A stretch of 64,000 nucleotides of DNA from Chthoniobacterales bacterium (GCA_038228695.1 JBBRPA010000013.1:3096-67095); one strand, 5' to 3'; positions 4,425 to 45,236 are shown, counted from the stretch's first letter. Notes: generated from the letters alone by a model not told the origin. Made by a program: numbers and translations.

Positions 4425-4943
4425 GTGCCGCCTTTTGGTTCGCCTTTCTGGCATTCTTCCTGCGCAACGGCAGCCCATGTCGAAACGTTCAGGCGTCATG
4501 CTCATTGTGGTGGGATTGCTGGCTTGGTCGTATTTTGCCCGGCCGGTCTATTCCTGACGACCGCCCTCGAACCGCGTATCCGCTGCGCCGTGGTCTCCGC
4601 TTATTTCAGCGATCGCGACACGGTCTTGAATGACCACGAAATCGATTTTCTCGACTGGCGCTTCCCGTATTCCACTTCCGTCTTGCGGGATGAAAACATC
4701 GCGGCGTTGATTTGTCCGCGACCACTTCAAATTCAATCTGGCACGCAGGATCAACTTTTTCCCGCCGCCGGGGGACGCGAAACCGCGGCCAAAACAGGGA
4801 ACCTTTACGACAAACTTGGGGTCAAAACGAACTTCTCCTATTACGAATTCACCGGCCGCCATGATTTCGAGGGCACCGCCGCGTGGAGTTTCCTCGAACA
4901 GCATTTCGCTCCACAGGAAATTGGCGGAGGGAGTGGGATTTGA
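4425..4943 (+). CDS. Alpha/beta hydrolase (dienelactone-hydrolase-like) C-terminal fragment, probably truncated
   Basis: AHCGG nucleophile-elbow-like motif, TALEPRIRCAVVS, and a C-terminal FTGRHDF (His) region. Only ~50 nt separate it from the divergent gene, so the N-terminal ~100+ aa of the fold are missing. The 3' end runs 22 nt into tRNA-Ser. Confidence 0.45.
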   Translation: MPPFGSPFWHSSCATAAHVETFRRHAHCGGIAGLVVFCPAGLFLTTALEPRIRCAVVSAYFSDRDTVLNDHEIDFLDWRFPYSTSVLRDENIAALICPRPLQIQSGTQDQLFPAAGGRETAAKTGNLYDKLGVKTNFSYYEFTGRHDFEGTAAWSFLEQHFAPQEIGGGSGI

Positions 4944-5010
4944 ACCCACGGAGGCTTGTGACCTCTCCGGTTTTCAAGACCGGTGCAATAAACCGCTCTA
5001 CCATCCCTCC
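4922..5010 (-). tRNA. tRNA-Ser (anticodon UGA), CCA encoded
   Basis: Reverse complement is GGAGGGATGGTAGAGCGG...CCGGT-CTTGAAA-ACCGG (anticodon loop with UGA), a long variable arm, GTGGG-TTCAAAT-CCCAC T arm, and acceptor TCCCTCC-G-CCA. Confidence 0.9.
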
Positions 5011-32827: not shown

Positions 32828-33688
32828 TTAAGCGCCGACGGGATGCCAGACGGTTTTGAATTCGATGAATGAGCGGATGTCGTGCAACCCCGCCGCGCTC
32901 ACCCAGGCACCATCGGCGACGCGAATTTTTACTCGTTTGACACTGGCCGCCCCGCCCGTTTCCAACGCGATCGCATCCTCAGCAGAGACCGCCGCGTCAA
33001 GCCCGCGCAAATGCGTGTGGGTGGCAAAGGTCTCGACCAGTTCTTTGCGAAAACCAGTGAGAATGTTCACCACACCTCCGGGCAAATCGGAAGTAGCTAA
33101 CATTTCGCCTAACACAATCGCTGGATAGGGAGTCACCTCAGAAGCCAAGGCCACAACGGAATTTCCGCTAACAATGGCGGGAAGAATTTGGGCGAGCAGA
33201 CCTAACAAGGCCGGGGTGTTCGGCGCGATGATGCCAATGATTCCGGTGGGCTCGCTGATGGTGAAATTAAAATAAGGCGCTGCGACCGTGTTCGAGTTGC
33301 CGAGGACTTGGTCGTATTTGTCCGCCCATCCTGCAAAATGAACGATCAGATCAATCGAACGCGCAACCTCCTCCTTGGCCGAGGCTGGGGTGACCCCTGA
33401 AGTGCTAACGAGAGCGGTCTCCATCTCTGCGGCGCGCGCCTCGATCATTTCGCCGAGGCGATAAAGAATCTGGCCACGGTTGTAGGGGGAGCGCGCAGCC
33501 CAACCTGCACCGGCCTTGGCGGCCACCTCGACGGCGTTGCGCAGATCCTTCCGGGTGCATTGCGGAATATTGGCGAAAAAGGCCTTGGACTTGGGATCGT
33601 GAATCGGAAACACGCGTCCGCTTTCGGAGCGGATGAACGCTCCGCCAACATAGGCTTTGGGAGTTTTGGTAATGGGTAAACGGCTCAT
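32828..33688 (-). CDS. Aldehyde-dehydrogenase-like protein lacking the catalytic domain (286 aa)
   Basis: ALDH N-terminal/NAD-binding half (YVGGAFIRSESGRVFPIHDP, PYNRGQILYRLGEMIEARAAEME, FAGWADK, IAPNTPAL). It ends ~40 aa after the LETGG (ELGG-equivalent) position, with no catalytic Cys segment. Confidence 0.75.
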   Translation of the reverse strand: MSRLPITKTPKAYVGGAFIRSESGRVFPIHDPKSKAFFANIPQCTRKDLRNAVEVAAKAGAGWAARSPYNRGQILYRLGEMIEARAAEMETALVSTSGVTPASAKEEVARSIDLIVHFAGWADKYDQVLGNSNTVAAPYFNFTISEPTGIIGIIAPNTPALLGLLAQILPAIVSGNSVVALASEVTPYPAIVLGEMLATSDLPGGVVNILTGFRKELVETFATHTHLRGLDAAVSAEDAIALETGGAASVKRVKIRVADGAWVSAAGLHDIRSFIEFKTVWHPVGA

Positions 33689-33696
33689 AATTTTTT

Positions 33697-34177
33697 AACC
33701 ACGAATGGACACGAATGGACACGAATTAGTGACAAATGATTCATAGGACGAGACGCTGCCACTCGAGTTTCTTGCGGTGGAAATTAAGCATTTGACCACG
33801 CTCGTGATCTCCAATGCGTTCGATAACTTTGGCATCGACGATTACAGAGTCAGCAATGATCAGATCAGGAACAAACTCAGAAACTTTAACCCCTTTGTAT
33901 CGCACGTCATATTTCCGTTGCTGCTCGCAAGGAATCCCTTGCAAACCAAATTCCACTACCAGCGAATTCTCGTAAGTCTTTTCGTTCAAACCGTGCCCCA
34001 GTTGATTCATCACCTCCAAGGCACATCCAACGATTGCATAGACTAACTTTCCATGGAGAAGCGGCGCTTCCTCCTCCCACTCCAATTCACAGACACGGCT
34101 GGAAGCAACCAAGCTAGGTTCAGCCACCCGCGTTTTTCCCTCTCCCCATTCGTGTCCATTCGTGTCCATTCGTGGTT
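33697..34177. mobile_element. Cassette bounded by 30-bp perfect inverted repeats, carrying a GxxExxY gene (IVS/MITE-like)
   Basis: Left arm 33697-33726 is AACCACGAATGGACACGAATGGACACGAAT. Right arm 34148-34177 is its exact reverse complement. Each arm is ~2.6 tandem copies of the 10-mer ACGAATGGAC. Confidence 0.7.
33741..34169 (-). CDS. GxxExxY protein (PD-(D/E)xK-like; family known from 23S rRNA intervening sequences)
   Basis: LGHGLNEKTYENSL contains the G-x-x-E-x-x-Y motif, followed by VPDLIIADSVIVDAKV; 142 aa. The start codon lies inside the right repeat arm (MDTNGHEW). Confidence 0.85.
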   Translation of the reverse strand: MDTNGHEWGEGKTRVAEPSLVASSRVCELEWEEEAPLLHGKLVYAIVGCALEVMNQLGHGLNEKTYENSLVVEFGLQGIPCEQQRKYDVRYKGVKVSEFVPDLIIADSVIVDAKVIERIGDHERGQMLNFHRKKLEWQRLVL

Positions 34178-34185
34178 GAATTCTT

Positions 34186-35703
34186 TCAGGAAATTTTCAC
34201 GTAATCGAACAAACCCTGACGTCCACCCTCGCGGCCAAAGCCGGATTCTTTGTAGCCACCAAACGGCGATGCGGGATCAAATTTATTGAACGTGTTAGCC
34301 CAAACGACGCCCGCCTGAATGGACGCGGCCATTTTCAAGATTCGCGAGCCTTTGTCGGTCCAGACTCCGGCGGAGAGACCGTAGGCGGTGTTGTTAGCTT
34401 TTTCGATCGCTTCCTCAGGCGTGCGGAAGGTGAGAATAGAAAGGACTGGGCCGAAAATCTCCTCGCGGGCGACGCGATGACTTTGCGTTACGTTGCTGAG
34501 CAAGGTGGGTTTGAAGAAAAATCCCTGCGCTGGGAGTTTGCACGATGGCTGGTAAAGATCTGCCCCTTCGAGAACGCCGACGTTGACTAGCTCGGTGATG
34601 CGGCCCAATTGTTCGCGGGAATTGACCGCACCGATGTCGGTGTTCTTATCGAGTGGATTGCCGACCCGCAACACATCGATGCGGCGGCGGAGTTTTTCGA
34701 TGAACATTTCCGCAATAGATTCTTGCACTAACAACCGGCTGCCCGCGCAACAGACATGCCCCTGATTGAAGAAGATTCCGTTCACCACTCCTTCGACAGC
34801 TTGATCGATTGGCGCATCCTCAAAGACGATGTTAGCTGCCTTGCCGCCTAGCTCCATGGTTAGTTTTTTTCCGAGGCCCGCGAGTTGGCGAATGATGAGT
34901 TTGCCGACGTCGGTCGACCCGGTGAAGGCAACTTTCGCAGCGAGCGGATGTTTGACCAGAGCCGAGCCGGTTTCCCCAGCTCCGGTAACGAAATTCACCA
35001 CGCCCGGTGGTAGATCGGCCTCCTGCAAAATCTCCGCGAGCTTGAGCGCGGTGATCGAAGTCGTTTCGGCCGGCTTGAGCACAACGGTGTTTCCGGCGGC
35101 GAGCGCGGGGCCAAGTTTCCACGCGAGCATGAGCAGCGGAAAATTCCACGGAATGACTTGGCCGACGACGCCGAGCGGCTCGATTTTTTGCGCAGGAATG
35201 GCGTAAGCGAGCTTGTCCGCCCAGCCAGCGTGATAGAAAAAATGCGCCGCCGCGGTTGGCACGTCAAAATCGCGCGATTCCTTGATTGGTTTGCCTCCGT
35301 CGATCGTCTCCGCAACGGCAAATTCGCGAGCACGATCCTGCAAGAGACGAGCGATGCGGAAGAGATATTTGCCGCGCTCGCGCCCCGGCATTTTACCCCA
35401 AGTCTTGTCGTAAGCGCGTTTCGCGGCCTGATAAGCGGCATCGACATCCTCGGCGCCTGCTAACGCGATGTTAGCAATCTTCTTTTCCGTGGCCGGATTA
35501 ATCGACGGGAATGATTTACCACTTTTGGGGGCGACGAATTTTCCGTCGATAAAAAGCGAATAGTCGGCCTTGAGTTTCGGGTCGGCTGTTTCGGGTGCGG
35601 GATCGTATTCCCAGAGATCACCGAAGATGAGCTCGGCCCCGCTTTTCGAGGGAGCTTTAGGCGATGATTTTTGCGCGGTGGCGCGGCGTTCCTTGACTTT
35701 CAT
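34186..35703 (-). CDS. Aldehyde dehydrogenase (NAD(P)+), full length
   Basis: FTGSTDVGK, ELGGKAANIV, catalytic GHVCCAGSR, EEIFGPV, FGGYKESGFGRE. The ATG at 35703 (MKVKERR) lies 4 nt after the deoC stop. Confidence 0.9.
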   Translation of the reverse strand: MKVKERRATAQKSSPKAPSKSGAELIFGDLWEYDPAPETADPKLKADYSLFIDGKFVAPKSGKSFPSINPATEKKIANIALAGAEDVDAAYQAAKRAYDKTWGKMPGRERGKYLFRIARLLQDRAREFAVAETIDGGKPIKESRDFDVPTAAAHFFYHAGWADKLAYAIPAQKIEPLGVVGQVIPWNFPLLMLAWKLGPALAAGNTVVLKPAETTSITALKLAEILQEADLPPGVVNFVTGAGETGSALVKHPLAAKVAFTGSTDVGKLIIRQLAGLGKKLTMELGGKAANIVFEDAPIDQAVEGVVNGIFFNQGHVCCAGSRLLVQESIAEMFIEKLRRRIDVLRVGNPLDKNTDIGAVNSREQLGRITELVNVGVLEGADLYQPSCKLPAQGFFFKPTLLSNVTQSHRVAREEIFGPVLSILTFRTPEEAIEKANNTAYGLSAGVWTDKGSRILKMAASIQAGVVWANTFNKFDPASPFGGYKESGFGREGGRQGLFDYVKIS

Positions 35704-35707
35704 AATG

Positions 35708-36637
35708 TTAGTAAGCGGTGGCGGCCTCGGAGAAATACCATGGCGCTTGGTAGGCTCCGGTGCGCTCTTTTTCGAGTTGGCGGACAAGGTCGTTGAGCAA
35801 AGCGCTAGCTCCGAAACGGTAGCGCGAGTTGGTCAACCAAGCGTCGCCCAGCGTCTCCTTAACTGCGACGAGAAAATGCAACGCCTGCTTAGCGGTGCGA
35901 ATGCCGCCGGCGGGTTTCATGGCAATGGCGCGGCCCGTATTTAGATAGAAATCACGGATCGCTTCGAGCATGACCTGGGTGTTAGCTAACGTCGCATTAA
36001 CCGTCACTTTTCCAGTGCTAGTCTTAATGAAATCGCCCGTTCGGATCACTTCCATAGCAAGAAAGGATGCGACGCGGATGTGATCGTAAGTTTCCAGTTC
36101 TCCGACTTCCAAAATCACTTTCAACCGCGCCTCTCCGCAGGCCTCCACCACCCCGACGATTTCGTCCTGCATCGCGCGATATTCGCCAGCCAGAAATAAG
36201 CCACGGTTGATGACCATGTCGATTTCGTCTGCGCCATCGCCCACCGCGCGTTTCACTTCTTCAAGCCGGAGGCGCAAGGGACTTTGGCCGGAAGGAAAGG
36301 CGGTGGCCACGGACGCGATTTTGACCGGACTAACCGCGCCGAGCGCCTTTCGCGCGTGCCGCACCATAGCTGGATAGACGCACACGGCAGCCGCGCAGGG
36401 CACTTCGCGATCATCGGAGGGCGTGAGCGCTTTTTGACAGAGCGAAATAACTTTCCCAGGCGTGTCTTTCCCCTCGAGCGTAGTGAGATCGACCATCGAA
36501 ACCGCTGTCTTCAAGCCCCAGACTTTGGAGGCTTTCTTGATGCTGCGGGTGGTAAATTTGGCGACGCGCTCCTCGATTCCCACCTGATCAACAGGACCGA
36601 TTTCACGAAGTTTGCGCAACAAGGGGGCGGAACTCAT
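35708..36637 (-). CDS. deoC: Deoxyribose-phosphate aldolase (long form)
   Basis: VDLTTLEG, FPSGQ, DEIDMVINRG, FIKTSTGK (Schiff-base Lys), MKPAGGIR. Start taken at MSSAPLL. Confidence 0.88.
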   Translation of the reverse strand: MSSAPLLRKLREIGPVDQVGIEERVAKFTTRSIKKASKVWGLKTAVSMVDLTTLEGKDTPGKVISLCQKALTPSDDREVPCAAAVCVYPAMVRHARKALGAVSPVKIASVATAFPSGQSPLRLRLEEVKRAVGDGADEIDMVINRGLFLAGEYRAMQDEIVGVVEACGEARLKVILEVGELETYDHIRVASFLAMEVIRTGDFIKTSTGKVTVNATLANTQVMLEAIRDFYLNTGRAIAMKPAGGIRTAKQALHFLVAVKETLGDAWLTNSRYRFGASALLNDLVRQLEKERTGAYQAPWYFSEAATAY

Positions 36638-36723
36638 AGCGGAACAGGCTAGTCTTTTTGAGCGAGCGTGCAAATCATTCCGCTGGGCTGGTCATGTAGC
36701 GGAATTTCGGGTAGGTAAGAGGC

Positions 36724-45077: not shown

Positions 45078-45091
45078 GGAAGGGCTATTTT

Positions 45092-45230
45092 AACCTCGAA
45101 TGGACACGAATAAACACGAATAGAAGAAGAAATAAGCCAAAAACGAGATCGATTTGGGTCTGACTCGAAGGCCAACAATCAGTTTAACTCCCCTTTTTAA
45201 ATTTGTGTCCATTCGTGTCCATTCGTGGTT
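45092..45230. mobile_element. Cargo-less copy of the ACGAATGGAC inverted-repeat element (139 bp)
   Basis: Left arm 45092-45121 is AACCTCGAATGGACACGAATAAACACGAAT (3 mismatches to the canonical arm). Right arm 45201-45230 is ATTTGTGTCCATTCGTGTCCATTCGTGGTT (1 mismatch). The 79-bp interior has no ORF. Confidence 0.6.
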
Positions 45231-45236
45231 AAAAAA

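Follow-up and report, generated by a model that had tools for sequence, protein, structure and literature searches.

What is a small nuclease-like gene, enclosed by a perfect inverted repeat, doing between two aldehyde dehydrogenase (ALDH) genes of one operon, and by what route could it have come to lie there? The question is raised by a 481-bp unit near the middle of the DNA analyzed here, a stretch of 64,000 nt referred to below as the window. A sequence-only reading of the window had described this unit as a 142-aa GxxExxY ORF between perfect 30-bp inverted arms, placed 8 nt behind the stop codon of a full-length ALDH gene and 8 nt ahead of the start codon of a second, ALDH-like gene. Direct reading of the sequence and a repeat finder confirmed the arms, which consist of AACCACGAATGGACACGAATGGACACGAAT (33697-33726) and its reverse complement (34148-34177), and both spacings were indeed 8 nt (Table 1). 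Each arm comprises 2.7 tandem copies of ACGAATGGAC; if the flanking bases are counted, the inverted repeat reaches 33 nt (97%), and 421 nt separate the arms. The two longest inverted repeats of the 64-kb window are the arms of this cassette and a second copy of the same arms, and a chance origin is excluded because a perfect 30-mer inverted repeat is unexpected in a sequence of this length. The cargo was correctly placed on the strand of the operon, as deoC, both ALDH genes and the GxxExxY ORF are all encoded on the minus strand, but in transcript sense the arm that was named first in that reading (33697-33726) is the 3' one.

Table 1. Coordinates of the cassette, its host operon and the second arm pair in the window
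Feature	Positions	Strand	Remarks
3' arm (transcript sense)	33697-33726	minus	exact reverse complement of the 5' arm; ends GGTT
5' arm (transcript sense)	34148-34177	minus	AACC and three 10-nt units (ACGAATGGAC); holds the cargo ATG (34169-34167)
GxxExxY cargo ORF	33741-34169	minus	142 aa; predicted minimal PD-(D/E)xK nuclease domain
ALDH stop codon TGA (34186-34188) and 8-nt spacer AAGAATTC ahead of the module	34178-34188	minus	
A-rich spacer of 8 nt, AAAAAATT, and start codon ATG of the short ALDH gene (33686-33688)	33686-33696	minus	
Full-length aldehyde dehydrogenase (ALDH)	34186-35787	minus	upstream host gene
Short ALDH-like gene	32828-33688	minus	downstream host gene; 286 aa
deoC	35708-36673	minus	first gene of the operon
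Second arm pair	45088-45234	minus	cargo-less 147-nt hairpin; fills the gap between ilvD and a PHP phosphatase gene

The full-length ALDH has 505 aa in the public gene call (533 aa as the longest ORF), and the spacer ahead of the short ALDH gene carries no Shine-Dalgarno sequence. Folding of the whole cassette as RNA closes the arms into a 30-bp stem (-187 kcal/mol, z -5.65). A search of the entire window against Rfam at the gathering score returned tRNA only, and a search with the module at E<=1 returned nothing relevant. Neither an integrase nor a cassette array adjoins the unit, and the view of it as a stem-bounded module between two co-transcribed genes, devoid of a recognizable transposase or integrase as cargo, is supported.

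The ORF contains the sequence GHGLNEKTYEN, in which GLNEKTY represents the GxxExxY motif, and it scores well above the cut-offs of both profiles for this family, PF13366 (PDDEXK_3; E 5e-24, 85.3 bits, cut-off 22) and TIGR04256 (GxxExxY protein; E 1e-25, 90.3 bits, cut-off 35). Catalytic-type residues are present in the form of PDL and VDAK. The match covers only positions 2-91 of the 116 profile positions, which falls short of a full-length domain. The start codon of the ORF (34169) sits within the arm. Relative to intact proteins of 130 aa, an insertion of 29 codons follows the arm, and the in-frame loss of 14 aa, MLN[YLRI..VGVILN]F, has taken away both the tyrosine of QxxxY and the strand that comes next. 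The AlphaFold2 (AF2) model of the window protein reaches a pLDDT of 45.7 versus 86.6 for the intact relative P0020, obtained with a comparable alignment. The copy in the window is probably a degraded member of the family, and its nuclease activity appears likely to have been lost.

Intact relatives are typically about 130 aa long and begin with MDTNGHE. These residues are encoded by the arm itself (CGA ATG GAC ACG AAT GGA CAC GAA), which places the start codon within the stem. In the alignment of the relatives, E37, D76, D86, K88 and Q100 are invariant and Y104 is nearly so, giving the pattern E...D...DxK...QxxxY that is conserved across GxxExxY proteins. The closest folds to the AF2 model of an intact relative are those of Cas4 SSO0001, LHK-Exo, lambda exonuclease and MGME1, with weaker matches to Hjc and to tRNA-splicing endonucleases (probability 0.7-0.8); a sequence search of the PDB with the intact relative gave no match. 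By motif and predicted fold, the GxxExxY protein is a minimal PD-(D/E)xK domain of the RecB/Cas4/lambda-exonuclease type. PF13366 itself was listed with function 'unknown' in a survey of PD-(D/E)xK proteins (PMC3424549). Purifying selection on the gene is strong (dN/dS about 0.06, with saturated synonymous sites), and the arms have stayed near-identical despite this saturation. Because neither PADLOC nor PHROGs contained a match for the protein, nothing suggests a known defence system or a phage gene; IMG/VR and a phage collection likewise yielded no GxxExxY relatives.

The arms are not unique to this locus. When one genome per species was scanned for the 20-mer ACGAATGGACACGAATGGAC, at least 120 stretches of DNA matched. 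The matches listed come mostly from Verrucomicrobiota, the others from Planctomycetota, Kiritimatiellae/Victivallales, Hydrogenedentota, Acidobacteriota, Armatimonadota, Chloroflexota, Gamma- and Deltaproteobacteria, Methylomirabilota and Bacteroidales, and they include an isolate genome, that of Nitrosomonas halophila Nm1 (Proteobacteria). Among them are 50 arm pairs that enclose interiors of 10 to 900 nt and whose outer ends are sharply conserved as (A)ACCACGAAT... and ...ATTCGTGGTT. In the metagenome from which the window derives, coverage at the arm positions is 3-5 times that of their surroundings, and many contigs continue from them into other flanks. With the second arm pair in the window, these matches settle the uniqueness check that had been proposed in favor of a dispersed repeat.

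An arm consensus derived from 58 non-redundant modules consists of AACC and three 10-bp units, each made of the conserved 8-mer ACACGAAT and two variable nucleotides. Positions 1-4 (AACC, with GGTT opposite) are invariant, and the 8-mer recurs with a period of 10 nt and is conserved across more than 10 phyla; the two nucleotides between the units vary and are often unpaired. Beyond the ends, the inverted repeat extends by 1-2 weakly conserved bases, T[T/G]AACC...GGTT[A/C]A (117 elements). Positions 5/15/25 and 8/18/28 change together throughout the units of both arms, so that variants such as CACGAAT, CGCGAAT, CACGGAT and CACAGAT are matched in the opposite arm, and the arm type tracks the clade of the protein in its tree. 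In 53 arm pairs, 92.1% of the cells are paired, and 82 cells show changes on both sides, as opposed to 31 in shuffled pairs, with none of 500 shuffles reaching as high a number. Such covariation would be expected equally from a stem and from two ends that are bound by one protein. Mismatches of the G:U type (74) are as frequent as those of the A:C type (77) and thus give no sign that the sense RNA alone has been under selection. The conservation of the 8-mer, the freedom of the intervening positions and the lack of a G:U excess argue for recognition by sequence, and this comparison of arms points to sequence-specific recognition sites, probably in the form of DNA, besides or instead of an RNase III substrate. 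Conserved sequence at a spacing of one helical turn, with free positions in between, resembles a series of iterated sites for protein binding no less than it resembles a stem.

The cargo is as recurrent as the arms. A jackhmmer search that started from the window protein and covered all ORFs of the 120 loci listed (out of at least 120) found GxxExxY ORFs or fragments only at arms. Three arm loci among those listed hold full-length copies (L041, L037 and L101) and about 5-7 hold internally deleted fragments (L067, L085, L087, L091, L031, L048 and L115), and GxxExxY is the sole recurrent cargo among the 120 listed. In the reverse direction, flanking arms were present at 75 of 80 metagenome loci that encode relatives of the window protein. 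Among culturable bacteria, Oleiharenicola lentus (P0081) has an intact module. The GxxExxY fragments retained within short hairpins show that these hairpins are deletion relics of full modules. The hairpin at 45088-45234 begins 2 nt past the ilvD stop codon, ends about 10 nt before the next ATG and folds at -57 kcal/mol (z -6.1). Its arms are absent from two relatives (L211 and L213, 77-78% identity at the ilvD-PHP gap); a clean empty site was considered for this gap and rejected, because the relatives that lack the arms carry other sequence there. Of the gene pairs around short hairpins, 28 are co-directional, 9 convergent and 3 divergent, which is no informative departure from the genome expectation.

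The position of the modules relative to the host genes is tightly constrained. For 49 of 55 modules, a long host ORF on the same strand has its stop codon between -30 and +40 nt relative to the left end (18% for random positions), with peaks at -2, -12 and -22. At -2, the host stop codon, T|AA, takes in the first bases of the module, and at -12 and -22 the host ORF stops at the TGA of the arm unit cgaATGAac, where ATGA serves as both host stop and cargo start. On the other side, a same-strand ORF or ATG follows 4-33 nt past the right end in 32 of 53 modules (16% for random positions), and in 17 of these 32 the ATG lies 8-9 nt past it. In 43 of 56 modules, cargo and upstream gene point the same way. 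A simple pattern scan of the module revealed neither a consensus sigma-70-type promoter nor an intrinsic terminator. Target-site duplications are absent, as direct repeats of 2, 3 and 4 nt flank 6, 3 and 0 of 117 elements, respectively; in the window, the inserted DNA exceeds the AACC..GGTT unit by about 20 nt. The sharp stop/start geometry could stem from selection after insertion instead of targeting.

A like arrangement is found with distant GxxExxY genes of isolates (26-34% identity), each of which has arms of its own sequence. The module of Bacteroides finegoldii lies between radA and a gene for an FAD protein, where the radA stop codon is followed by 1 nt, the arm TTCACCACAGAGGACGCAGAGGACACGGAG, the complementary arm (30 nt at 90%), 5 nt and the next ATG. 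Sphingomonas parapaucimobilis YK209 carries a module between fabD and fabG with arms of 25 nt at 92% (TTCACGCGAAGGCGCGAGGACGCGA), and the GxxExxY gene of Treponema saccharophilum has 16-nt arms. The architecture therefore belongs to the protein family and not to a single clade.

Comparison of orthologous loci showed that the module is a DNA insertion. In the closest relatives for which the context is available (L122/L123, 79% identity, and L125/L126, 82%), the two ALDH genes overlap by ATGA and hold no insert; the search for empty junctions that the sequence-only reading had called for thus succeeded in L122 and L125. The short ALDH was not truncated by the insertion, as it is one of a genuine, conserved family of proteins 286-295 aa long. 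Modules occupy the same ALDH junction in L129, L127, L131-L136 and L197. The host-gene tree places the filled window locus as sister to the empty clade and the filled L129 locus outside both; the window and L129 share an unusual N-terminal extension, ELEWE.EEP. Empty sites could be ancestral and not the products of excision.

At the ALDH junction, the tree of the modules is largely congruent with that of the hosts and amino acid identities are similar. Congruent trees, purifying selection and near-identical arms are taken together to indicate long residence with occasional loss, which, as judged from these alignments, suggests long vertical residence and a selected function at this junction instead of frequent jumping. 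Other comparisons speak for movement. Between L132 and L134, dS is 0.02 for the module versus 0.40 for the adjacent gene, and identity is 98-100% in the module versus approximately 92% in the flanks, or 99.5% versus 93%. For most orthologous pairs, similarity is higher by 6-10 percentage points inside the module than in the flanks, and modules that are 80-87% identical in nucleotide sequence occur in unrelated flanks. The low module dS, the similarity of the interiors and the unrelated flanks indicate, at the level of sequence comparison, that modules have been replaced or converted at the same site and have spread to new ones. One locus, L175, came with 'RNA' runs, but these consist of long contigs, are probably DNA and show an allele in which 2.8 kb replaces the module, and on this ground RNA processing was rejected as their explanation. 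An rRNA context had also been suspected for L175 and was rejected by Rfam.

We favor, at about an even chance of its being right, a reading of the 481-bp unit as an ageing, partly decayed copy of a group of palindrome-ended modules of approximately 430 bp, which have the GxxExxY nuclease as their only conserved cargo, would be expressed by read-through and would be spread by that nuclease. According to this proposal, the module would be transcribed through operon read-through, and translation of the nuclease would be coupled to that of the upstream host gene by termination-reinitiation, with the ATGA of the arm acting as stop and start in many copies. In the mRNA, the arms would pair as a 30-bp stem and bring the host stop codon near to the next start codon; the stem could in this way preserve a coupling that was once given by the ancestral ATGA overlap, and it would also make a plausible substrate for RNase III. 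The nuclease would recognize the iterons, either in double-stranded DNA or once extruded into a hairpin, and the DNA breaks made by it might lead to the spread of the module to new junctions and to copying between alleles of one junction. Internal deletion turns modules into cargo-less hairpins such as the one at 45088-45234. The predicted enzyme is the obvious candidate for moving the module, although it could instead be a passenger or act on RNA. The earlier remark that the means of movement is unexplained remains largely true. A further-reaching proposal, which we hold to be less likely than not, is that GxxExxY modules make up an unrecognized class of autonomous bacterial mobile elements, with a minimal PD-(D/E)xK nuclease as the only gene in about 430 bp, a start codon embedded in the iterons and insertion, in many phyla, at operon stop/start junctions that leaves no duplication; they would do no harm to the host, as the RNA hairpin would bring its stop and start codons back together and preserve their coupling.

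Other readings share part of this evidence. The arms might constitute an RNA element like the intervening sequences (IVSs) of 23S rRNA, that is, a double-stranded stem cut by RNase III to excise the cargo transcript, with the spread of the DNA due to an unrelated cause. The perfect 30-bp stem and the whole-cassette fold of -187 kcal/mol (z -5.65) speak for such an element; the compensatory changes between the arms and the sense orientation of the modules within operons (that of the upstream gene in 43 of 56) agree with it, and so do the Coxiella IVS, an element of 428 nt with tandem repeats ahead of its ORF and an RNase III cut at the first of them (PMC4990558), and the co-transcribed Correia elements, which are likewise cut by RNase III (PMC2649163). 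RNase III has no need of a particular sequence, yet the 8-mer has been kept in more than 10 phyla with a 10-bp period, while each arm unit leaves two positions free, which often do not pair. Nor is there a sense-strand RNA signature, with 74 mismatches of the G:U type against 77 of the A:C type. Since, in addition, none of 214 loci lies in rRNA and a cut in the stem would part two translationally coupled host genes, we regard this reading as unlikely on balance. We hold it to be distinctly improbable that the module is a domesticated, now immobile device of benefit to the host, in which GxxExxY, as an RNA endonuclease or RNA binder acting on its own arms in the manner of Cas6, would set how strongly the flanking genes are expressed relative to each other. 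Strong purifying selection (dN/dS about 0.06), an amino acid divergence that equals that of the neighboring housekeeping gene over deep splits and the largely congruent module and host trees at the ALDH junction are in keeping with domestication, and the PD-(D/E)xK fold does include RNases, with tRNA-splicing endonucleases matching at a probability of 0.7-0.8. Both the E-D-DxK-QxxxY motif and the top structural matches nevertheless point to DNA nucleases, many copies, that of the window among them, have decayed to fragments or bare hairpins, related modules sit at unrelated junctions in many phyla, and sister lineages thrive without any module.

The favored reading of a nuclease-spread module must also be set against an ordinary family of miniature elements of the MITE type, moved in trans by an unlinked transposase, with GxxExxY as an often-captured passenger. 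Terminal inverted repeats, many short copies without cargo, intergenic sites and the presence of multiple copies in the source metagenome speak for such a family. It is very improbable all the same, given the absence of a target-site duplication, GxxExxY as the sole cargo, with its start codon built into the arm, arm types that co-diverge with the protein, and GxxExxY remnants in the short copies, which mark these as derived from full modules; a non-exhaustive look at the loci examined found no transposase with matching ends. The chance that the whole arrangement is a fortuitous inverted repeat or an assembly artefact is negligible: although a Logan contig from the same sample breaks at the arm, a sign that assemblers struggle with the repeat, the same architecture recurs in hundreds of independent assemblies, isolate genomes included, and a 70.8-kb contig spans the unit.

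Literature searches for GxxExxY, PF13366, TIGR04256, the repeat and its peptide translations retrieved no description of this architecture, and what we have found is apparently a widespread module family that is undescribed so far. It provides concrete, testable biology, namely the role of cargo in a palindrome-ended module with conserved iteron ends and a fixed intercistronic geometry, for a very large protein family (PF13366/TIGR04256) that is almost absent from the literature. It would also explain the odd low-complexity end peptides (MDTNGHE..., ..IRVHSW) of hypothetical proteins of Verrucomicrobiota, Planctomycetota and Bacteroidota, provides a model of the possible origin and spread of 23S rRNA intervening sequences, and may reveal a new route of mobility by DNA breakage and rejoining, together with a mode of insertion into operons that avoids polar effects.

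The sequence-only reading had likened the unit to the intervening sequences of 23S rRNA, a comparison that holds for the anatomy and fails for the location. The IVS of Coxiella burnetii is a stem-bounded insert of 428 nt; tandem heptamers stand just upstream of the start of its S23p ORF, and RNase III cleaves the insert at the first of these (PMC4990558). The modules resemble such IVSs as stem-bounded inserts of about 430 nt in a transcribed unit, with one small, decay-prone ORF, tandem short repeats right before its start and a sporadic, horizontal-looking distribution. Unlike them, the modules lie between protein-coding genes and not in helix 25 or 45 of 23S rRNA, and rRNA motifs were found in none of 214 related loci. 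The cargo, too, is different, as IVS ORFs are documented in the literature searched for the four-helix-bundle S23p family only, whereas the modules carry a predicted PD-(D/E)xK nuclease and have sequence-conserved iterons for arms.

With REPIN/RAYT systems, the modules share a small gene set between inverted repeats, copies of which also lie scattered as short intergenic hairpins, the lack of a target-site duplication and long persistence with vertical inheritance (PMC3116915, PMC3337134). The enzyme, however, has a predicted PD-(D/E)xK fold and is not an HUH (IS200/IS605-like) tyrosine transposase, and the arms, built of three 10-bp iterons and ending in AACC, lack the GTAG/CGTC tag of REP sequences (PMC3733652). 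In contrast to the single-copy RAYT, the module gene is present in multiple copies and dispersed together with its arms, and the short hairpins appear to be deletion relics and are not proven independent replicators. Correia elements and other MITEs (100-160 bp) are similarly bounded by inverted repeats, located beside genes and co-transcribed, and their RNA hairpins can be cleaved by RNase III (PMC2649163, PMC10969869), but Correia elements duplicate TA and have no ORF, whereas the modules leave no detectable duplication and in their full form encode a nuclease. Integron attC sites (GTTRRRY core, intI arrays) were rejected because tandem 10-mers stand on both sides of the ORF and single copies are scattered between housekeeping genes, and a CRISPR-like reading was rejected on anatomy. 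Free-standing homing endonuclease genes offer another parallel, as they are small nuclease genes with presence/absence at one exact site and, as in at least one case here (dS 0.02 versus 0.40), can be more alike than their flanks; they differ from the modules, which have long inverted repeats and occupy many unrelated junctions, and GxxExxY is not a member of the LAGLIDADG, GIY-YIG, HNH, His-Cys box or I-Ssp6803I-type PD-(D/E)xK homing families. For all the features that it has in common with 23S rRNA intervening sequences, REPIN/RAYT systems and Correia elements, the module belongs to none of the three.

The GxxExxY modules of L132, L134 and L136, three related loci from outside the window, are 99.5% identical between lineages, as opposed to about 93% for the genes that flank them, and the corresponding dS values are 0.02 for the module and 0.40 for the flanking genes. 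The contrast is a signature of a homing-like process or of recombination.

At L175, the module is exactly replaced by ~2.8 kb of other sequence in a closely related strain (sludge runs), and this junction is polymorphic for different inserts. In one lineage, represented by L127, a gene for an MFS transporter separates the short ALDH gene from the module; on the downstream side of the module, this junction has thus acquired additional DNA.

The Aldedh match of the short ALDH is restricted to Pfam positions 2-216 of 461. This half-domain protein belongs to a conserved family of 286-295 aa, in which an ATGA overlap with the upstream full-length ALDH gene is normal; this suggests a role as a non-catalytic partner subunit.

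Features in the window and in related or arm-bearing loci
Feature	Locus	Position	Strand	Remarks
tRNA gene	window	4925-5010	-	sole Rfam match in the window
286-aa "ALDH"	window	32828-33688	-	N-terminal half of Aldedh domain plus C-terminal tail
Hairpin	window	45088-45234		147 nt
Palindromic element	L213	2300-2440		Chthoniobacterales relative
Modules	L132, L134, L136	about 2493-2926
Module	L175	474-975
Junction with MFS transporter gene	L127	2120-3950
Arm array	L024	4575-4960
Arm array	L006	61-181
Arm array	L057	6357-6444		9 ten-mer units
Arm array	L077	4874-4958		8 ten-mer units
Nested hairpins	L069	4997-5394

A second pair of GxxExxY-module arms, without cargo, forms the window hairpin, which takes up precisely the gap that separates ilvD from the gene for a PHP-family histidinol phosphatase. 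The equivalent gap in L213 harbors an unrelated palindromic element with 27-nt arms (TTCGGGAGCGCACGCGTCTCGCGTGCA and its complement). This gap seems to be a collecting site for hairpin elements from different families.

Arm sequences were also found expanded into direct arrays at L024, L006, L057 and L077. The L024 array comprises seven ~53-nt direct repeats, each consisting of the left arm and a fixed 23-nt spacer, followed by one reverse arm. In L069, a GCAGAGAAC-like hairpin of another arm type is nested in the interior of an ACGAAT-type hairpin; this nested hairpin is similar to the arms that flank the GxxExxY gene of Bacteroides finegoldii.
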